Part shown: in pieces, positions 29,703 to 38,256 of the stretch
How positions within the stretch are numbered: the stretch's first letter is position 1
How the letters are laid out: every line of letters begins with the position of its first letter
Origin: Candidatus Multivoradales bacterium
Lineage (GTDB): Bacteria > Acidobacteriota > Thermoanaerobaculia > Multivoradales > JAHEKO01
Direction: 5' to 3'
NCBI GenBank assembly: GCA_965223855.1
Contig: CBDCXM010000009.1
Location: 832,001-896,000 of the forward strand
Length of the DNA stretch: 64,000 nt
The notes under the pieces: model-generated
Told to the model about the DNA's origin: nothing
Database searches by the model: none
The model's input: only the letters and a program-made list of their open reading frames with translations
Translations under genes and position numbers: made by a program

Positions 29703-31067
29703 ATGGACGAGGAACTGAGGACTCTGCTCGCCGAGACGCACGAGCGCGCGGTCGCCTACCTGGACCGCCTCGACGAACGGCCGGTGGCGCCGACCTCCGA
29801 GGCGCGCGCGGCGTTGTCGCGGTTCCACGAGCCGCTCCCCGAGGAGCCGACGGCGGCGCGCGACGTGCTGGCGCTGCTCGACGACATCGGTTCTCCGGCG
29901 ACGACGGCGGTCGCCGGAGGGCGGTACTTCGGCTACGTCATCGGCGGCGTGCTGCCCGCCGCGCTCGGCGCCAACTGGCTCGCCGGCGCCTGGGATCAGC
30001 CGACCGGGCTCTACGACTTCACACCGGCGACGGCGACGCTCGAGATCGTCGCCCTCGACTGGCTGATCGAGCTCCTCGGGCTGCCCTCGGATTGCGGCGG
30101 CGGCTTCGTCACCGGGGCGACGATGGCCAACTTCTCGGCGCTGGCGGCGGCGCGCCATGCGGTGCTCGGCGAGGTCGGCTGGAACGTCGAGGCGGACGGC
30201 CTCTTCGGTGCGCCACCGATCACCGTGATCGTCGGCGAGGAAACGCATCCGACGCTCTTCAAGTCGCTGGGGATGCTCGGCCTCGGACGCGAGAGGGTCG
30301 TGCGGGTTCCGGTCGACGACCAGGGGCGGATGCTCGCCGACGCGCTGCCGCCGGTCGAAGGACCGACGATCGTCTGTACCCAGGCTGGCAACGTCAACAG
30401 CGGCGCCTTCGACCCGGTCGGCGAGATCGCGAGGCGGGTGAGGCCGGAGGGGGCGTGGGTGCATGTCGACGGCGCCTTCGGCCTCTGGGCGATGGCGTGT
30501 CCGCGTTTCGCCGACGAGATGGCGGGGACCGAGGAGGCGGACTCGTGGGCGACCGACGCTCACAAGACCCTCAACGTCCCCTACGACAGCGGCCTCGTGT
30601 TCCTGCGCCGCCCCGAGCTGCTGCGCGCGGCGATGGCGGTGACCGCCGAGTACCTGCCGACGACGACGCGGCGCCAGCCGTCCGACTACACCCCGGAACT
30701 GTCGCGACGCGCCCGCGGTGTCGAGGTGTGGGCCGCCCTTCGCCAGCTCGGCCGCAGCGGCTTCGTCGCCATGGTCGAGCGGCTCCACGACCATGCGCTG
30801 CGCTTCGCCGCCGGGCTCGAGGAGGGGGGGCACGAGGTGCTCAACGAGGTCGTCTTCAACCAGGTGGTGGTGGCGTTCGGCGACGCGGCGACGACCGAGC
30901 GGGTGATCGCCGCGATCCAGGCGGACGGCAGCTGCTGGTGCGGCCCTACCGAGTGGCGCGGCCGGCGGGCGATGCGGATCAGCGTCTCTTCGTGGCGAAC
31001 TTCCGACGAGGACGTCGAGAGGAGCCTCCGGGCAATCATCGACATTGCCGCAGAAGTCATTCGTTGA
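29703..31067 (+). CDS. Group II PLP-dependent decarboxylase
   Basis: RYFGYVIGG, VTGATMAN, HVDGAFG, PLP lysine DSWATDAHKTLNVPYDSG, PELSRRAR. Confidence 0.92.
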   Translation: MDEELRTLLAETHERAVAYLDRLDERPVAPTSEARAALSRFHEPLPEEPTAARDVLALLDDIGSPATTAVAGGRYFGYVIGGVLPAALGANWLAGAWDQPTGLYDFTPATATLEIVALDWLIELLGLPSDCGGGFVTGATMANFSALAAARHAVLGEVGWNVEADGLFGAPPITVIVGEETHPTLFKSLGMLGLGRERVVRVPVDDQGRMLADALPPVEGPTIVCTQAGNVNSGAFDPVGEIARRVRPEGAWVHVDGAFGLWAMACPRFADEMAGTEEADSWATDAHKTLNVPYDSGLVFLRRPELLRAAMAVTAEYLPTTTRRQPSDYTPELSRRARGVEVWAALRQLGRSGFVAMVERLHDHALRFAAGLEEGGHEVLNEVVFNQVVVAFGDAATTERVIAAIQADGSCWCGPTEWRGRRAMRISVSSWRTSDEDVERSLRAIIDIAAEVIR

Positions 31068-31073
31068 TCGGGG

Positions 31074-31103
31074 TTTACAAGGGGCGGTACCTCCTCGTAG
31101 ACT
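31074..31103 (+). promoter_or_regulatory. Sigma70-type promoter TTTACA-N18-TAGACT
   Basis: -35 at 31074-31079 and -10 at 31098-31103, upstream of SD AAGGAG and ATG 31141. Confidence 0.6.
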
Positions 31104-31140
31104 GCCGCCTCATTTGCCTCTGACTGACCAAGGAGAGACC

Positions 31141-31725
31141 ATGCGGAAGACAACCCTGCTACTGGCCCTGCTCGCCCTGGTGGCCTTCGCGCCCGCCGTG
31201 GATGCGCAGAGCGCCCGTACCGACGGCACCTTCGTCTACGACCCGAGCGCGCAGCCGAAGCCGCCCGAGGATGGCGACGACGACTGCCCGCCGAGCACGA
31301 TCATCAACTCGACGCCGTTCAACGACACGGGCGACACCTGTGGCAACACGAACACCATCACCACCTACTCGGGTACCTGCACGCTCCCGTTCCCCTACGG
31401 CGGTGAGGATCAGGTCTACGGCCTGACCGTCGGTGGCGGCGCGAACATCAACATCTCCGCCGATCTCACCGGCTCGACAGGCGACCTCGCGCTCTTCATC
31501 GTCGGCACCTGCGGCGACGGCAGCACCTGTGTCGCCAACTCCCAGGACTCCATCGGCCCCGGCGCGGGTCCCGAGGAGATCCTCGGTTTTTCGGCGGCGG
31601 TCGGGAACTACTTCCTCTACGTCGACTCGTACTACAACGCCGGCAGCCCCGGTTCGTGCGGCACGTTCGACCTGGACGTCACGGGCACGATTCCGGCCGA
31701 GCTGGTCGAGTTCGAGATTCACTGA
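31141..31725 (+). CDS. Secreted PPC-like beta-sandwich protein ending in a PVEL-type strand (IPAELVEFEIH)
   Basis: SD AAGGAG; signal peptide; DQVY...DLALF...GNYFLYVD...GTFDLDV PPC-like pattern; six cysteines. Confidence 0.85.
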   Translation: MRKTTLLLALLALVAFAPAVDAQSARTDGTFVYDPSAQPKPPEDGDDDCPPSTIINSTPFNDTGDTCGNTNTITTYSGTCTLPFPYGGEDQVYGLTVGGGANINISADLTGSTGDLALFIVGTCGDGSTCVANSQDSIGPGAGPEEILGFSAAVGNYFLYVDSYYNAGSPGSCGTFDLDVTGTIPAELVEFEIH

Positions 31726-31746
31726 ATCGGATCGAGCTGCAAGCCG

Positions 31747-31781
31747 AACCCCGTCGCCGGCCCGGCGGCGGGGTTTTTCTT
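31747..31781 (+). terminator. Intrinsic terminator/stem-loop between the first and second operon genes
   Basis: aaccccgtcgccg...cggcggcggggtt GC-rich stem followed by a T-rich tail. Confidence 0.8.
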
Positions 31782-31798
31782 GCAAGGAGTGATCGAAA

Positions 31799-32848
31799 CT
31801 GAAGCTGCTGCCCGTCTTCTCGGCCCTACTGGCGCTCGCCGGCGTCGCGACAGCCGAAGAGCGGCCCGAGAAGGCCCTCGGCGCGACCGGCATCCCCGGG
31901 TCGCTGACGATCGAGGAGGCCCACGCCGACTTCGGTGAGCGCTACGCCTCCGACGAGGTCGAGTGGCAGTGGCGGGTCAGGAACGAGGGCGAGGTCCCGG
32001 TGGCGATCGAGGAGGCGATCGCCGTCGAGGGGGACGCGCGGCTCGGCGGTGCTCCCGCAATCCTCGCGCCCGGTGAGGAGGTGACGGTGACGGTCGAGCA
32101 ACCGCTCCAGGGGATGCTCGGGGTGACCTCGCGCCGCTACGCGCTCGTCACCGACGAGCCGGGAGTCGCCCGCTATCGCTTCTCGCTCACCGGTTTCGTC
32201 GAGTCGGCCTTCGAGCCGGAGATCCCCACCCTGCAGTTCGGCAAGGTGGGGAGCGGGCTCGGCATCGCGACGGTGGAGGTCGTCAGCCGCGAGGTCGAAG
32301 AGCTGCAGGTCCGCCCGGTCGGTCCGCTGCCGGGCGAGATGGCGATCGAGGTAGCGAGCGTCGAAGGGGACCCTCAGGCGCTGACCCTCGAGGCCGTGCT
32401 CGCGCCGGACGCTCCGCTCGGGATCACCGAGGGCGCCTTCCTGCTCGAGACCAACGTGCCGACGCATCCCGAGCTCGAGGTGCGCTACGGCTACGCCTAC
32501 TACGGAGCCGTCGTGCCGGAGCGCAATCCGCTGATGGTGCTGCCGGCCGAAGCGGGGACGCCGATGGAGGATTCGTTCCGTCTCGTTTCCGAGGAGCCGT
32601 TCGAGATCGTGTCGGTGGAGGCGGACTTCGAAGTGGTGACACTGGAGAGCACCCCCTGCGCCGGCGACTCGCCTTCGAGCTGCTGGACGATTCGCTTCCG
32701 CACACCGCCGCGTGCGATCGGCCCCTTTGCGGGCTCGCTCGAAGTGGTCGTGGCCGGCGAGTCGCGGCCCCTGCCGCTGCGGGTTCTCGGCATCGGGATC
32801 CCACCGGGGACCGAGCTCAAGACCATCGACATCTCGGGAGGAGCCTGA
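31799..32848 (+). CDS. Secreted multi-Ig-domain protein (DUF1573/PapD-like), probable CTG start
   Basis: SD AAGGAG 9 nt before CTG; in-frame TGA at 31790; signal (M)KLLPVFSALLALAGVATA; ADFGER...WRVRNEGEVPVAI...ILAPGEEVTVTV; LETNVP. Confidence 0.75.
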   Translation: MKLLPVFSALLALAGVATAEERPEKALGATGIPGSLTIEEAHADFGERYASDEVEWQWRVRNEGEVPVAIEEAIAVEGDARLGGAPAILAPGEEVTVTVEQPLQGMLGVTSRRYALVTDEPGVARYRFSLTGFVESAFEPEIPTLQFGKVGSGLGIATVEVVSREVEELQVRPVGPLPGEMAIEVASVEGDPQALTLEAVLAPDAPLGITEGAFLLETNVPTHPELEVRYGYAYYGAVVPERNPLMVLPAEAGTPMEDSFRLVSEEPFEIVSVEADFEVVTLESTPCAGDSPSSCWTIRFRTPPRAIGPFAGSLEVVVAGESRPLPLRVLGIGIPPGTELKTIDISGGA

Positions 32849-32849
32849 G

Positions 32850-33266
32850 ATGAGGATGGCAAGCACCCTTCTGTGCGCGATCGTGCTGTCCGTCCCGGCG
32901 GCGATGGCAGCCGAGGAAGACGCGGCCCTGCCGAGGCTCGAGTGGCGCGCGCAGCACGAGGAGGCACTCTACGGCTACCTCGTCTATCGCTCCGAAGCCC
33001 GCTCGGGTCCCTTCCTCAGGGTCTCGAAGAAGATCGTCCGGGTGCCCGAGGACGGTTCGACCTCTCATAGTTACGAGTTCGTCGATGCGACCGCCGAACC
33101 GTGCCGCACCTACTACTACTACCTCGACCAGGTGCTGAGGAACGGAGCGAAGTCGAGATTCTCCGGGGTGCTGGCGAAGGAGACGGCTTGTCCGGCGGAA
33201 GGCGAGGCGTCGACGTCCGATGCGGCCGGGCGTCGGGCCGCCGACGGCACGTCCGAAGACAGTTGA
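32850..33266 (+). CDS. Small secreted Ig/FN3-like protein matching the body of the PVELxxF domain but lacking its first strand
   Basis: Signal peptide; LEWRAQHEEALYGYLVYRS...GPFLRV...SYEFVDATAEPCRTYYYYLDQVLRNG. Confidence 0.8.
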   Translation: MRMASTLLCAIVLSVPAAMAAEEDAALPRLEWRAQHEEALYGYLVYRSEARSGPFLRVSKKIVRVPEDGSTSHSYEFVDATAEPCRTYYYYLDQVLRNGAKSRFSGVLAKETACPAEGEASTSDAAGRRAADGTSEDS

Positions 33267-35083
33267 GCACGCGCCGGCGACGCGAATGGCGGGCCCTGGC
33301 GGTGGCGGGGTCGCTCGTCTGGATCGGAGCAGCCGGATCCGCGGCCGGATCAACAGCCGAGCCTCAGCCCGGCCTTGGCGCTGCTCGAGACGAGCTCGCC
33401 GGACCTGAGGTCTCCAGGCCCGATGTCCTGGTCATCACCATCGACACCCTGCGCCCCGACGCGGTGGGGGCGATCGGCGGTAGCAACGAGACGCCTCATC
33501 TCGACCGTCTGATCTCCGAGGGGGTGCTGTTCGACGGCGCGGTCTCACCGTTGCCGCTCACCCTGCCCGCTCACACCTCACTCTTCTCCGGGCTGCTGCC
33601 GGCGCGTCACGGCTTGCGGGACAACGGGCAGACCGTCGCGCCCGGCACCGGGCTGCTGGCGGAGCAGTTGAGGGAGGTGGGCTACACCACGGCGGCGTTC
33701 GTCAGCGGCTTCCCGCTCGAGAGCGTCTTCGGCCTCGATCGCGGTTTCGACCACTACGACGACGCCCTCGTCGACGGGCCCGCCGGGCGGCTCGAACGCC
33801 CCGCCGACCGCACGGCCGATGCGGCGATCGCCTGGCTCGAGGAGGCCGCGTCGCCGTGGTTCGTCTGGGTCCACTTCTACGACCCTCACGATCCGTACGA
33901 GCCGCCGCGCGCCTTCTGGAAGCCGGGGACGCGAGGGGCCTACGACGGTGAAGTGACCTTCGTCGACGAAGCGATCGGCCGTCTCGCCGCCGTCACGGCG
34001 CCCCGGCCGACGCTCACCGTCGTCACCGCGGATCACGGCGAGGCACTCGGCGAGCACGCCGAGAAGACGCACGGCTACTTCGTCTACGACTCGACGATGC
34101 TGGTACCTCTGCTGTTCCACTTCCCGGAGCGGATCGCGCCGGCGCGGCTCGGAGCCGCGGCACGACTCATCGACGTCGCACCGACCCTGCTCGACCTGCT
34201 CGATGTCCGGGGGTCAGGCGTCGAGGCGCCGGGAGCGGTCGACGGGGTGTCGCTGCGCTCGGCGTTCGAGGGGCAGCTGCCGGTCGTACCGCCCGCCATC
34301 CTCGAGACCTTCCTCCCCTGGACCTACTTCGGCTGGTCGCCGCTGCGTGCGATCCGCACCGGGAAGTGGAAGCTCATCGAAGCGCCGAGACCGGAGCTCT
34401 ACGACCTGACCGCCGACCCCGGCGAGACCACCAACGTACTGTCGAGCCATCGACAGCAGGCTCGCCTCCTGGCCGAGCAGCTCGGGGACCTGGGTGCGGG
34501 AGAGTCGTCGACACCGGCTGCGGTCGAGGACCCCGAGACGGTCGAGAAACTGCGGGCTCTCGGTTACACCGTCTCGCCACGCCGCGAGCCGCCGCGTCGG
34601 GGACTTCCCGACCCCAAGGATCGCATCGCGCTGCGAGACCGGCTCACCCTGGCAGAGGACCTTCTGGCGAGCGGCCGAGTCGCCGAGGCGGCGACGCTCT
34701 TCGAGGAGGTGCTCGCCGTCGAGGCCGACAATCGAGCCGCGCTGCTGCGCTCGGGAGTGACGGCGCTCCGGCGGGGCGACCTCGAGCTCGCCGAGGAGCG
34801 GCTCGGCCGCTCGATCGAGCTCGACCCGCACCGGGCGGAGGCGCGCTTCGCTCTCGGTGACACCCTGATGCGGCGCGAACGCTGGGCCGAGGCGGCGCAG
34901 CAGTGGATGGAGGTCGCGCGTCTGCAGCCGCGACGGGTGGAGGCGTGGGCGAATCTCGCGCAGGCCCAATGCGCCGCCGGGCAACCGGAGCTGGCGAAGT
35001 CCGCACGGCGCGAGGCGCTGGCGCTCGAGCCGGAGACCGAGGAGCGTCTTCCCGAGTGCGGCGCCGTGAAGAGTTCAGGCTAA
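33263..35083 (+). CDS. Sulfatase-like (alkaline phosphatase superfamily) hydrolase with C-terminal TPR repeats
   Basis: ITIDTLRPD, PLTLPAHTSLFSG, HFYDPHDPY, TADHGE, ELYDLTADPGE, LRALGY, TPRs; TTG start (TTGA overlap) uncertain. Confidence 0.88.
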   Translation: MSTRRRREWRALAVAGSLVWIGAAGSAAGSTAEPQPGLGAARDELAGPEVSRPDVLVITIDTLRPDAVGAIGGSNETPHLDRLISEGVLFDGAVSPLPLTLPAHTSLFSGLLPARHGLRDNGQTVAPGTGLLAEQLREVGYTTAAFVSGFPLESVFGLDRGFDHYDDALVDGPAGRLERPADRTADAAIAWLEEAASPWFVWVHFYDPHDPYEPPRAFWKPGTRGAYDGEVTFVDEAIGRLAAVTAPRPTLTVVTADHGEALGEHAEKTHGYFVYDSTMLVPLLFHFPERIAPARLGAAARLIDVAPTLLDLLDVRGSGVEAPGAVDGVSLRSAFEGQLPVVPPAILETFLPWTYFGWSPLRAIRTGKWKLIEAPRPELYDLTADPGETTNVLSSHRQQARLLAEQLGDLGAGESSTPAAVEDPETVEKLRALGYTVSPRREPPRRGLPDPKDRIALRDRLTLAEDLLASGRVAEAATLFEEVLAVEADNRAALLRSGVTALRRGDLELAEERLGRSIELDPHRAEARFALGDTLMRRERWAEAAQQWMEVARLQPRRVEAWANLAQAQCAAGQPELAKSARREALALEPETEERLPECGAVKSSG

Positions 35084-35157
35084 GATCAAGCGCCCCTGAA
35101 TCAGCCCTGTTCGCGGCGACCGCTCGCGAACTGCTGCGACCAACTACGGAGTTCGCG

Positions 35158-38100
35158 ATGAGATCAGCCTTCCCGACGTCCTGTGTCCGAGCGTTGTGGG
35201 TGGGAGCCACGATGATGGTGCTGCTCGCTTCGGCAGTTGCCGCCGAGCCGCCCTCGCCGCCGCCCTACTACGCGATCACGAACGTCACCGTCGCCACCGG
35301 CGACGGCCGCACCCTCGAAGGAGCCACGGTGCTGGTGGCCGACGGCCTGATCGAGGCGGTTGGCAGCAGCGTCTCCGTGCCGGGCGACGCCTGGACGATC
35401 GACGGCAGCGGGCTCTACCTCTACCCCGGCCTGATCGACGGCATGTCGACGCTCGGCCAGGCCTCCGGTGGCGGCGAGTCGGACGACGACTCGGGCGGCA
35501 ACCCCTTCGCCTCCGACGGCCCGGAGATCCGCGGCCCCGAGGACCGGCCGAAGACGACCCCGTGGGTCAGCGCCGCCGATCTGCTTGGCGACGACAGCCG
35601 GGTCGAGAAGTGGCGCGACGCCGGTTTCACCGCGGCGATGTCGGTGCCGGAGAGCGGCATTTTCGGCGGCAGCGCGAGCCTGGTGCACCTGGGCGACGTC
35701 GAGCCGCGCGAGCGGGTAGTGGCGACCGGGCTCGCTCAGCGAGTGGCGCTCGAGACCGGCGGCTTCCGCAACTATCCCGGCTCGCTGATGGGGGTCATCT
35801 CCTATGTGCGGCAGGTGCTCTCCGACGCCGACCACTATGCCCAGGCGAGCGCCGCCTACGAGCGCGCTCCGGCGGGCCGCAAGCGCCCTGAGTACGACCG
35901 CACGCTCGAGCCTCTGGTGACGGCGCGAGCCGCCGGCGTGCGCTTCCTGCTGCCGGCCGACAACGGCCAGGAGATCGATCGGGCGCTGGCGATCGGCAGC
36001 GACTACGACCTGTCGACCGTGATCTACGGCGCCCGCGGCGCCTACGCCCGGACCGGGCGCCTCGAAAACGCCGGTGTCGCCGTGCTGGTCAGCCCCGACT
36101 GGCCCGAGGAGGAGAAGGACCGCGACCCGGATGCCGACACCGACTTCCGCGACTACTACCACCGGCGGATGGCGCCGACGACCCCCGCCGCGCTCGCCGA
36201 GGCGGGCGTCGACTTCGCCTTCTACTCGCACGGCATCGCCGGCTCCGACGCCTTCTTCGAGGGGGTGCGCGCGGCGATCGAAGCCGGCCTGTCGGAGGAC
36301 GACGCCCTGGCGGCGCTGACCTCCGCGCCGGCCAAGATCTTCGGCGTCGGCGACCGGGTCGGCACCGTCGAGCGCGGCAAGATCGCCAACCTGGTGCTCG
36401 CGACCGGCCCGCTGTGGGCCGAGGACACCGAGATCGAGGCGGTGTTCGTCGATGGCCGGAAGTATCAGGAGCGCGAGAGCGAGGAGCCGACCGAGGCCCC
36501 CGAGGGCGACGCTTCAGGGACCTGGTCGCTGGCCCTCGTGACGCCCGGCGGTACGCGCGACATGACCGCCGAGCTCGAGATGGACGACGAGGGCAAGGTG
36601 ACCGGTGAGCTCTCGAGCGAGATGGGCTCGAGCTCGGTCGACGACGGCCGGCTCTCCGGCACCCAGCTGCGCTTCAAGACGACGCGCGAGATGGCGGGTC
36701 GCAGCATGGAGGCGTCGTTCTCGATGGAGCTCGACGGCGACACGCTCTCCGGCACGATGAGCGCCGGCCCGATGGCGATGGATATCTCCGGCGAGCGCAC
36801 CGCGCAGGCGGCCGACGCGAGCGAGGAGGGCGACGACGAGGCCGCGGCGGACGACGTCTCCCTCGCCGAGCTCGCCGAAGCGATGGAGGTCTACCAGGGG
36901 CCGGTCAGGAAGCTCGACACCTTCGCGATCATGAACGCCCGCATCTACACCGTGACGGGCGAGACGATCGACAACGGCTCGGTGCTCGTGCGGGACGGCA
37001 AGATCGCCGCGGTGGGTCTCGAGCTGCGGCTGCCGAGCGACGTCGAGATCTTCGACGCCGCGGGCGGGTCGCTCGTCCCCGGGATCTTCGACGCCCATGC
37101 TCACATCGCCGTCGACGGCAGCGTCAACGAAGGGTCGCTCGCGGTGACGTCGATGGTCGGTACCGGTGACGTGATCGACCCCGACGACATCGCGATCTAC
37201 CGCGCGCTCGCCGGCGGGGTGACGACCGCCAACATCCTCCACGGCTCCGCCAACCCGATCGGCGGCCGCAACCAGCTCATCAAGCTGCGCTGGGGAATGG
37301 ACGCCGAGGGAATGAAGTTCGCCGGCGCCCCCAAGGGGATCAAGTTCGCTCTCGGTGAGAATCCGAAGCGCTCGAACTTTCGCTCGCCGGCGATTCCGCA
37401 GCGCTACCCGCAGACCCGGATGGGCGTGATCGACGTCATCCGGCGCGCCTTCACCGAGGCGAAGGCCTATCAGGCCGAGTGGCAGGAGTGGGAGGCAACG
37501 CCGGCAGGGAAGCGCGGTGTCGCCCCGCGGCGCGACTTCAAGCTCGAGGCGCTGGTCGAGATCCTCGAGGGCGAGAGGCTGGTGCACTCGCACAGCTACC
37601 GCGCCGACGAGATCCTGCAGCTGATCCGCCTTGCCGAGGAGTTCGGCTTCACCGTCGCGACCTTCCAGCACGTGCTCGAGGGCTACAAGGTGGCCGACGA
37701 GCTGGCTGCTCACGGCGCCGGCGCTTCGACCTTCTCCGACTGGTGGGGCTACAAGGTCGAGGCCTACGACGCCATCCCCCACAACGCGGCGCTGATGACC
37801 GAGCGCGGCGTGGTCGTGTCGATCAACTCCGACAGCGGTGAGGAGATGCGCCACCTCAACCAGGAGGCGGCGAAGGCGGTCAAGTGGGGCGGCATGAGCG
37901 AGGTCGAGGCGTTGAAGCTCGTGACGCTCAACCCGGCGATCCAGTTCGGCGTCGACGACCGGATCGGCTCGATCGAGGTCGGCAAGGATGCCGACCTGGT
38001 GCTCTACGACGGCCCGCCGCTGTCGATCTCCTCTGTGGTGCAGAAGACCTTCGTCGACGGCGACCTCTACTTCGACATCGACGCCGATCGTGAGCGCCAG

Positions 38101-38256
38101 GCGCTGATCGACGAGCTCGAAGAGCGCCTCGGCGGCGGTGACGAAGAGGAGACGGACGAAGAAGAGGGTGAAGGCTCCGAAGAGGAGGAGGTCAAGGCAC
38201 CCGACCCGCCGGAAACGATCGCGCTCGAGGCCGGGCGCTCGGAGGAGGTGAGCTGA
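35158..38256 (+). CDS. Secreted tandem amidohydrolase-domain protein
   Basis: Domain 1 YPGLIDGMS (no HxH); domain 2 PGIFDAHAH, KFALGENPK, HSHSYR, FQHVLE, NSD, GKDADLV; alternative start at 35212. Confidence 0.88.
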   Translation: MRSAFPTSCVRALWVGATMMVLLASAVAAEPPSPPPYYAITNVTVATGDGRTLEGATVLVADGLIEAVGSSVSVPGDAWTIDGSGLYLYPGLIDGMSTLGQASGGGESDDDSGGNPFASDGPEIRGPEDRPKTTPWVSAADLLGDDSRVEKWRDAGFTAAMSVPESGIFGGSASLVHLGDVEPRERVVATGLAQRVALETGGFRNYPGSLMGVISYVRQVLSDADHYAQASAAYERAPAGRKRPEYDRTLEPLVTARAAGVRFLLPADNGQEIDRALAIGSDYDLSTVIYGARGAYARTGRLENAGVAVLVSPDWPEEEKDRDPDADTDFRDYYHRRMAPTTPAALAEAGVDFAFYSHGIAGSDAFFEGVRAAIEAGLSEDDALAALTSAPAKIFGVGDRVGTVERGKIANLVLATGPLWAEDTEIEAVFVDGRKYQERESEEPTEAPEGDASGTWSLALVTPGGTRDMTAELEMDDEGKVTGELSSEMGSSSVDDGRLSGTQLRFKTTREMAGRSMEASFSMELDGDTLSGTMSAGPMAMDISGERTAQAADASEEGDDEAAADDVSLAELAEAMEVYQGPVRKLDTFAIMNARIYTVTGETIDNGSVLVRDGKIAAVGLELRLPSDVEIFDAAGGSLVPGIFDAHAHIAVDGSVNEGSLAVTSMVGTGDVIDPDDIAIYRALAGGVTTANILHGSANPIGGRNQLIKLRWGMDAEGMKFAGAPKGIKFALGENPKRSNFRSPAIPQRYPQTRMGVIDVIRRAFTEAKAYQAEWQEWEATPAGKRGVAPRRDFKLEALVEILEGERLVHSHSYRADEILQLIRLAEEFGFTVATFQHVLEGYKVADELAAHGAGASTFSDWWGYKVEAYDAIPHNAALMTERGVVVSINSDSGEEMRHLNQEAAKAVKWGGMSEVEALKLVTLNPAIQFGVDDRIGSIEVGKDADLVLYDGPPLSISSVVQKTFVDGDLYFDIDADRERQALIDELEERLGGGDEEETDEEEGEGSEEEEVKAPDPPETIALEAGRSEEVS

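Follow-up and report, generated by a model that had tools for sequence, protein, structure and literature searches.

Gene content of the locus

We analyzed a 64,000-nucleotide stretch of DNA from a Candidatus Multivoradales bacterium of the phylum Acidobacteriota (assembly GCA_965223855.1, contig CBDCXM010000009.1, positions 832,001 to 896,000 of the forward strand), which is referred to here as the window, and focused on a cassette of four consecutive genes within it. Gene 1 encodes a secreted protein that ends in a ten-residue peptide, hereafter the tag, and gene 3 encodes a small secreted FN3-like domain, hereafter the socket, that is predicted to lack its first strand (strand A). An earlier note on this DNA had proposed that tagged cargo docks onto such a catcher protein by donor-strand complementation. 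Our analysis leads us to think it rather probable that the tag is a cut-off strand A that docks the gene 1 protein non-covalently onto gene 3 by completing the FN3 sandwich, and that this pair forms a specialised offshoot of a system that extends across the genome. The coordinates and residues that the earlier note gave for genes 1 and 3 were correct on re-reading. The features are as follows:

31074..31103, + strand: candidate sigma-70-like promoter (TTTACA-18-TAGACT) upstream of gene 1, a consensus match at 9 of 12 positions
31141..31725, + strand: gene 1, a secreted 194-residue beta-sandwich protein, weakly PPC-like, with six conserved Cys and the C-terminal tag
31693..31722, + strand: the tag, PAELVEFEIH, a putative detached FN3 strand A with the stop codon immediately after it; its 10-residue length is fixed in all 103 tagged relatives, and it is the sole part of gene 1 that contacts gene 3 in the model
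31746..31779, + strand: intrinsic-terminator-like hairpin 3' of gene 1, a 14-bp stem followed by UUUUU
31799..32848, + strand: gene 2, secreted, with three ASH/DUF1573-type immunoglobulin (Ig) domains and a probable CTG start; in many relatives it forms one chain with the gene 3 domain
32850..33266, + strand: gene 3, a secreted FN3-like domain of 138 residues, modelled without strand A (socket)
33263..35083, + strand: gene 4, a sulfatase-family enzyme with a C-terminal TPR domain, the fourth conserved member of the cassette

The C-terminal tag and the proteins that carry it

The gene 1 protein starts with a signal peptide and ends in GTIPAELVEFEIH directly before its stop codon, confirming the C-terminal PAELVEF strand that had been described there. 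Its match to the PPC domain (PF04151) reaches 16.3 bits, under the gathering score of 25.9 bits, and several of its relatives have a precomputed PF04151 match. Among the 120 relatives listed of 132 found at E <= 0.001, the tag is present in 103, each of which stops exactly 10 residues past the Pro of the tag. PVAL or PIAL variants of equal length occur in four further listed relatives, so that the tail is kept with the same stop position in 107 of 120, and two have aberrant tails. Eleven longer relatives carry another domain, a hydrophobic helix, and an RRK tail in place of the tag, and the tag therefore appears to occupy the place of an anchor. These tagless proteins (P0205, P0207, P0218, P0220, P0221, P0223-P0225, P0228, P0238, and P0241; 319-339 residues) share a C-terminus of the form GFGEGG, hydrophobic helix, and RRK, with DUF7507 precomputed in several of them, a choice-of-anchor pattern. 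Tagged relatives of gene 1 also occur in Gammaproteobacteria (records labelled Dokdonella and Tahibacter caeni), where the tail variant LPVSLESYSID is found.

A proteome scan for C-terminal tags, as the earlier note had suggested, showed that gene 1 has company. Among the six-frame open reading frames (ORFs) of the 4.5-Mb genome, 15 have the motif within their last 22 residues, and 13 of these were accepted as tags; the other two were set aside, one being an off-frame ORF and the other a transporter whose tail is hydrophobic. A signal peptide is present in twelve of the 13 tagged proteins, and the remaining one is cut by a contig end. At the DNA level, a strict pattern for the tag plus stop codon gave eight matches in 9 Mb (both strands), all of them real tags, and the same pattern without the stop gave six matches, every one at a C-terminus. 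The motif is essentially never internal, and chance is excluded. The earlier note was right about the tag itself and missed this genome-wide context, which comprises the twelve other tagged proteins as well as a second socket and a PorU-like C25 peptidase (described below).

The tagged proteins of this genome fall into several families with no relation to each other. One of these consists of seven paralogous secreted proteins of about 210-240 residues, all ending in the tag (contigs C7, C8, and C9; loci L002, L004, L005, L006, L010, L011, and L013), which share the motifs Y-D-P-G...G-N-x-F...N-x-Q-G-F-H and have no match in Pfam or NCBIfam. Searches of both collections with nine tagged proteins and the second socket returned DUF4082 in one protein only, and no model covers the tag.

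An FN3-like body predicted to lack strand A

The FN3 fold is a seven-strand beta-sandwich with the sheets A-B-E and C-C'-F-G. Gene 3 encodes a signal peptide followed by ...LPRLEWRAQHEEALYGYLVYRS...YEFVD...TYYYYLDQVLRNG, and it matches no Pfam family. Its AlphaFold2 (AF2) model, built from a 13-row alignment, has a mean predicted local distance difference test (pLDDT) score of 83, with the core above 95, and places strands at residues 29-35, 40-48, 72-78, 87-96, 101-103, and 108-111. Six of the seven FN3 strands are modelled, strand A is absent, and there is no structure ahead of residue 29 (LEWRAQ). The best PDB matches in Foldseek were FN3 domains at modest scores, with Ihog Fn1 at E 5.6e-3, probability 1.00, and a template modelling (TM) score of 0.47-0.56. 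According to this model, the gene 3 domain appears to be FN3-like and to begin at strand B, with no N-terminal strand of its own, in agreement with the strand-less Ig body that had been proposed. The 12 database relatives of gene 3 are small secreted proteins or lipoproteins, and in all of them the conserved region starts at LxWxA..E...YGYLVYR with no strand A ahead of it.

A profile search of 1.84 billion representatives returned 17,454 relatives of the gene 3 domain, among which contiguous forms are found as well. One such protein, P0034, carries four tandem repeats, each with its own strand and then the body, and ends in a C-terminal domain of T9SS type (T9SS, type IX secretion system). Its repeats open with [IL]P/N-V/T-ELSSF-x-A (PVELSSFTA-type) and are followed about eight residues later by LQWTTE...GF.V.RS, which bears out the earlier statement that a tag-type strand and the body form one domain in T9SS cargo. 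A PDB sequence search with a contiguous-form protein matched only its T9SS C-terminal domain, and no solved structure of the domain itself was found.

The two forms are distributed differently among genomes. Strand A is missing in all 17 body ORFs from tag-positive genomes (loci L018-L029, L036, and L037), and a complete domain with its own tag-type strand is present in all six proteins fetched from six tag-negative Acidobacteriota genomes. Judged from these sequences, the split and contiguous forms appear to be mutually exclusive among the genomes examined. The complete domain of these six lies at the extreme C-terminus of proteins of 470-970 residues, in the manner of a sorting domain (L030-L035, in genomes G120, G065, G176, G129, G077, and G144 of other Acidobacteriota classes), and in G176 a C25-family gene is located 3 kb downstream of the complete-domain protein.

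Predicted complex of the tag and the socket

For the complex prediction, gene 3 was represented by residues 22-122 with an alignment of 13 rows, and gene 1 by its mature form with an alignment of 51 rows. The scores of the three runs were 0.66, 0.62, and 0.56, with a median of 0.62, and the best of three controls reached 0.00. In calibration, 58 of 80 solved complexes attained this mark, as did 2 of 110 mismatched pairs; the counts hold only roughly here because custom alignments were used. The runs share at least 70% of their contacts, with a partner pLDDT of at least 72.

The interface on gene 1 consists of residues 184-194 only, which cover the tag. On gene 3 it comprises residues 28-40 (strand B), 90, 92, and 94 (strand F), and 104-110 (strand G), and the contact pairs 29:193, 32:191, 33:189, 34:187, and 36:187 run antiparallel, which is the position of strand A. 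The conserved Phe191 of the tag contacts gene 3 residues 92, 105, and 108. The docking geometry is thus a prediction in which the peptide completes the beta-sandwich, as the earlier note had anticipated for a model of this complex, and it supports binding of the tag to gene 3.

Co-occurrence of tag, socket, and peptidase

We compared this genome with 40 relatives drawn from its genus, family, and order (41 genomes in total). A strong socket match was observed in 17 of them (E <= 3e-16, with the next matches at 3.8e-10 or weaker and in multi-repeat proteins), and a strong orthologue of the C25 peptidase was observed in the identical 17 (E <= 1e-90, others at 1e-30 or weaker). Tags were detected in 16 of the 17 socket-positive genomes, with 1 to 14 in each, compared to 0-1 for a control with the reversed pattern. 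All three features are absent in 23 of the 41 genomes. Five families contain both positive and negative genomes, and within them the three features change in concert. Generic C25 proteins are more widespread (33 of 41 genomes, tag-free ones included). The gene 1-3 cassette lies back to back with a C25-socket pair in G026 and G037, and both modules recur in G050. A scan for tags at the level of the phylum (151 genomes) gave clear clusters only in G000, G033, and G050; it is not a clean test of co-occurrence, because the single matches elsewhere are at control level in lower-GC genomes.

Tag and socket also share conserved synteny. Genes 1, 2, and 3 were observed in the same order in all eight related loci, which represent seven distinct ones (L014 and L024 are one contig) and include metagenome-assembled genomes labelled Deltaproteobacteria, Acidobacteriota, and Holophagae. 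Six of the seven distinct loci also contain gene 4, at 50-57% identity, and it is better conserved across loci than genes 1-3.

A second socket and a PorU-like C25 peptidase

Gene 3 has a paralogue on contig C8 (33% identical), which belongs to a family of 570 clusters, all of them unannotated. Among 120 listed relatives of this C8 socket, 72 have a lipobox-like Cys, followed by a Pro/Ala/Glu-rich tether (median 34.5 residues) and then the domain, which opens at NTL[KR]W without strand A. Near the C8 socket there is a sulfatase-like paralogue of gene 4 (L012:8092-9426 (-), 30% identity, E 1e-42), together with a PMT_2 protein and glycosyltransferases, so that each of the genome's two FN3 genes without strand A is accompanied by a paralogous sulfatase-family gene.

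In 10 of 11 other loci, a Peptidase_C25 gene of 850-950 residues adjoins the C8-type socket gene. The C25 protein P0281 matches Peptidase C25 (PF01364) at 260 bits (cut-off 23) over residues 402-777. Its best NCBIfam match is PorU (NF033707) at 213.5 bits (E 4e-63), under the cut-off of 420 bits, and PorU2 follows at 122.9 bits (cut-off 450). The protein contains HGHGG and MTCYS motifs, which, by eye, we take to be the apparent catalytic His/Cys pair. The genome has two C25 genes of this kind, at C8:16022-18661 and at G000:C9:2931460-2933976 (-). The second copy is 40% identical to the C8 copy and has no adjoining socket gene; a relaxed genome-wide hidden Markov model search for one gave only gene 3, the C8 paralogue, and an ordinary two-FN3 protein at C9:251450 (E 0.028). 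Searches for PorV, SprA, and the T9SS C-terminal domain with PF18962 (Por_Secre_tail), NF033710, and TIGR04189 gave zero matches in this genome (92% complete), a result that does not prove absence of these components because the PF18962 and TIGR04189 controls matched in no control genome.

Organization of the cassette, gene 2, and gene 4

The transcriptional signals around gene 1 that the earlier note pointed out are recovered by computation. The promoter-like site at 31074-31103 is the single consensus-type match within 30800-35300, where shuffled sequences give a mean of 0.0. The hairpin right after the gene 1 stop codon has a 14-bp GC stem and a U-run, with a predicted energy of -40.5 kcal/mol and a z-score of -4.3. 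The remaining genes are tightly packed, with the start of gene 3 two bases past the gene 2 stop and the TTG start of gene 4 overlapping the gene 3 stop. The frame of gene 2 contains a stop at 31790, and as there is no ATG, GTG, or TTG between this stop and the region homologous to relatives, gene 2 probably begins at CTG 31799, which is positioned nine bases after AAGGAG (window 31784-31801). The next canonical start, GTG 32000, would cost the protein its signal peptide and most of its first Ig domain.

The description of gene 2 as a secreted, DUF1573/PapD-like multi-Ig protein held for its multi-Ig fold, whereas its match to DUF1573 (PF07610; 21.4 bits, E 2.7e-4) falls below the gathering score of 26.1 bits. 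Many relatives of 450-500 residues consist of a gene-2-like part, a Pro/Ala-rich linker of 30-60 residues, and a gene-3-like domain, and in the 22 relatives that were aligned gene 2 is fused to gene 3. The AF2 model of one fused relative, P0084 (pLDDT 85, predicted TM score 0.76), contains three packed Ig domains that resemble ASH/MSP-type arrays of the PapD superfamily, a disordered linker at 356-399 (pLDDT below 50), and an FN3 part that again opens at strand B. Because of these fusions, gene 2 is better seen as part of the socket protein, and the suggestion that it is a separate chaperone assisting docking falls away, as both parts are one polypeptide in many relatives. The tail of gene 2 (…PPGTELKTIDISGGA) was also considered as a tag or as a strand A supplied in cis and was rejected; the resemblance is weak, and the equivalent segment of P0084 (348-361), which is conserved and follows the last Ig domain, forms no strand.

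Gene 4 and its paralogue carry T-L-P-[AS]-H at the place of the sulfatase motif, where sulfatases have C/S-x-P-x-R. This suggests a Thr nucleophile and a chemistry other than that of a sulfatase. The cassette is preceded by a gene for a pyridoxal phosphate-dependent decarboxylase (29703-31067) and directly followed by a gene for a 1036-residue secreted protein (35146-38256), in which a Pfam amidohydrolase match covers only residues 593-972. Neither of these flanking genes recurs in the related loci.

Proposed mechanism and alternative explanations

In the mechanism that we favor, the last ten residues of gene 1 would be strand A severed from its FN3-like domain, and gene 3 would supply the remainder of that domain, strands B to G, as a secreted protein in its own right. 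Following export by Sec, the tag would insert antiparallel beside strand B of gene 3, in contact with strands F and G, and the conserved Phe of the tag would be buried in the core, so that the sandwich is complete and the gene 1 protein is docked. Gene 2, with its three Ig domains, would belong to the socket side, and gene 4 would be the conserved fourth member. For the other twelve tagged proteins, the C8 paralogue may serve as a general socket; in most relatives it is a lipoprotein with a tether. Given the close association with a PorU-like peptidase, docking may also bring cargo into position for cleavage or transfer. We infer that cargo becomes anchored at the envelope through docking and that the docked tag is acted on by the C25 enzyme. 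The central proposal of the earlier note has thereby gained computational support on three sides, as gene 3 has no N-terminal strand of its own in the model, binding of the peptide is predicted, and tag and socket co-occur in related genomes.

Several points weigh against docking as we propose it. Binding of gene 1 to gene 3 is a prediction, and its score may reflect the memory that the model has of intact FN3 domains, in which case it measures likeness to a split domain and not affinity. Gene 3 of this genome has no lipid anchor, the lipobox of its C8 socket is uncertain, and neither C25 gene is near the window. Among the compared genomes, G011 has a socket without a tag match (it is 68% complete), and G008 has one ambiguous tag-like match without a socket. 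Related genomes are not independent in such counts, and the E-value cut-offs that separate strong from weak matches of socket and C25 were set after the bimodal lists had been seen.

The peptidase could also be the principal actor, with the tag primarily a sorting signal for the PorU-like C25 enzyme, the socket binding only transiently to restore a folded C-terminal domain in trans, and docking being a processing step before the peptidase cleaves upstream of the tag and releases or transfers the cargo, in the way that PorU treats T9SS cargo. We regard this as possible, on the unlikely side. It is favored by the 213.5-bit score against the PorU model, the apparent HGHGG/MTCYS pair, the strong orthologues in exactly the 17 socket genomes, and the adjacency to the socket in 10 of 11 loci, and it fits with the contiguous domain at the extreme C-terminus of large proteins elsewhere (with the C25 gene 3 kb away in G176) and with the glycosyltransferase, PMT_2, and sulfatase-like genes around the C8 socket. 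Yet cleavage is hypothetical, the score remains under the PorU cut-off, generic C25 proteins are also found in tag-free genomes, no C25 gene is near the cassette in the window, and cleaved tags would block a stoichiometric socket unless they dissociate. Docking and processing may also be combined in a T9SS-independent sorting route, in which the 10-residue strand of the cargo and the lipoprotein FN3 body rebuild the domain, a PorU-like C25 transpeptidase recognises this rebuilt domain, and the enzyme then cuts the cargo and links it to a glycoconjugate of the envelope that the adjacent glycosyltransferase and sulfatase-like genes produce, with the gene 1-4 cassette as a dedicated soluble branch; we put this scheme forward tentatively.

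The remaining explanations are less compatible with what we found. It is improbable that the tag binds another partner, such as an outer-membrane or secretion component, and that a strand-A-less FN3 domain stable by itself shares with it only the cassette and the phyletic pattern. A-strand-poor FN3 domains do exist, AF2 is confident about gene 3 and the fused relative without strand A, and co-occurrence alone cannot name a partner; against this, the tag motif is strand A in the contiguous form of this very subfamily, split and contiguous forms were not found together in the genomes examined, and the complex model engages the tag alone, in the position of strand A. It is very improbable that donor-strand exchange builds a fimbria-like polymer here, in which gene 2 would be the PapD-like chaperone and gene 1, made in excess, the major subunit. 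The terminator after gene 1 and the ASH/MSP fold of gene 2 would suit it, but gene 1 has a donor strand without a groove and gene 3 a groove without a donor strand, so only a 1:1 complex is possible and the assembly of polymers that the earlier note had considered is not borne out. Fusion of gene 2 to gene 3 in the 22 aligned relatives, the lack of any gene 2 segment paired with strand B in the fused model, and the lack of an usher-like gene among those of the cassette also speak against it. Finally, the tail of gene 1 could be a functionless, accidental remnant of a truncated C-terminal domain. Nothing beyond its resemblance to the start of the domain favors this, and we give it hardly any credence, as the tail is kept in 107 of the 120 listed relatives, which come from several phyla, and is carried by twelve other unrelated proteins of this genome.

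Comparison with known systems

The new element here is a broader system that comprises tags, an FN3 lipoprotein without strand A, and a C25 peptidase resembling PorU, which co-occur in 16-17 of 41 genomes. Our literature searches, at the level of abstracts, led to donor-strand systems, studies of the T9SS and PorU, and Haft-type sorting signals, and gave no description of a detached FN3 strand used as a tag or of a PorU-like peptidase paired with such a socket. If docking is true, the pair would be a natural peptide-tag/catcher system that evolved by the splitting of an FN3 domain and serves as a general address label on unrelated secreted proteins, and the tag would represent a new class of C-terminal sorting signal, acting by completion of a fold rather than by a membrane-spanning helix. 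It would also provide a role for many PorU-like C25 peptidases outside Bacteroidota, an annotation for hundreds of hypothetical small FN3 lipoproteins (570 clusters) and their tagged cargo, and a tag/catcher pair without a covalent bond, ready for use in protein engineering.

Short C-terminal sorting signals that are served by enzymes of their own have been described (PMC3237569, 10.1101/2023.06.07.544157). Like LPXTG/sortase, PEP-CTERM/exosortase, GlyGly-CTERM/rhombosortase, and MYXO-CTERM/myxosortase, the system described here pairs many tagged proteins with a small machinery, and the choice of anchor within one cargo family is likewise seen in the gene 1 family. A transmembrane helix and a basic tail are part of those signals, whereas the tag has neither and instead has an acidic end residue at a fixed distance from its Pro (the gene 1 tag itself ends in ...EIH).

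A sortase-like action of PorU has been described (PMC4560394). The T9SS and the present system both combine a C-terminal signal on many unrelated Sec-exported proteins with a C25-family peptidase, and T9SS cargo contains the contiguous form of the domain, placed immediately ahead of the C-terminal domain. However, the signal here is 10 residues long compared to a folded domain of about 80 residues in the T9SS, and the remainder of the fold would come in trans from a small separate FN3 protein, which in most relatives is a lipoprotein. The C25 peptidase scores under the PorU cut-off, and the searches for PorV, SprA, and Por_Secre_tail, two of them with uninformative controls, came up empty in this genome.

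SpyTag/SpyCatcher is a man-made split of the CnaB2 domain that is locked by an isopeptide bond between Lys and Asp/Asn, with a catalytic Glu. The resemblance is that a short peptide tag completes, here by prediction, a separately made sandwich. The split here is natural, affects the first strand, and concerns an FN3-like rather than a CnaB domain, and nothing suggests a covalent bond.

In chaperone-usher systems, a subunit without its C-terminal strand G receives the G1 strand of the PapD chaperone, and an usher is present. More broadly, there are donor-strand pili and fibres in which an incomplete Ig-like sandwich is completed by a strand from another polypeptide, including the chaperone-usher Pap and Fim pili, the type V pili of Bacteroidia, archaeal threads and cannulae, and PilY1/PilC with minor pilins (PMC6615685, PMC4789730, PMC12518558, 10.1101/2022.04.26.489512, PMC12918778). 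The likeness to our system lies in the completion of a sandwich in trans, as predicted here. In contrast to those assemblies, the missing strand here would be A and not G, and the donor is the extreme C-terminus of an unrelated globular cargo protein rather than an extension of a pilin. No polymer is possible, no usher was seen in the cassette, and one socket would serve many families of cargo, all of which would make the peptide a docking or sorting tag rather than a device for filament assembly.

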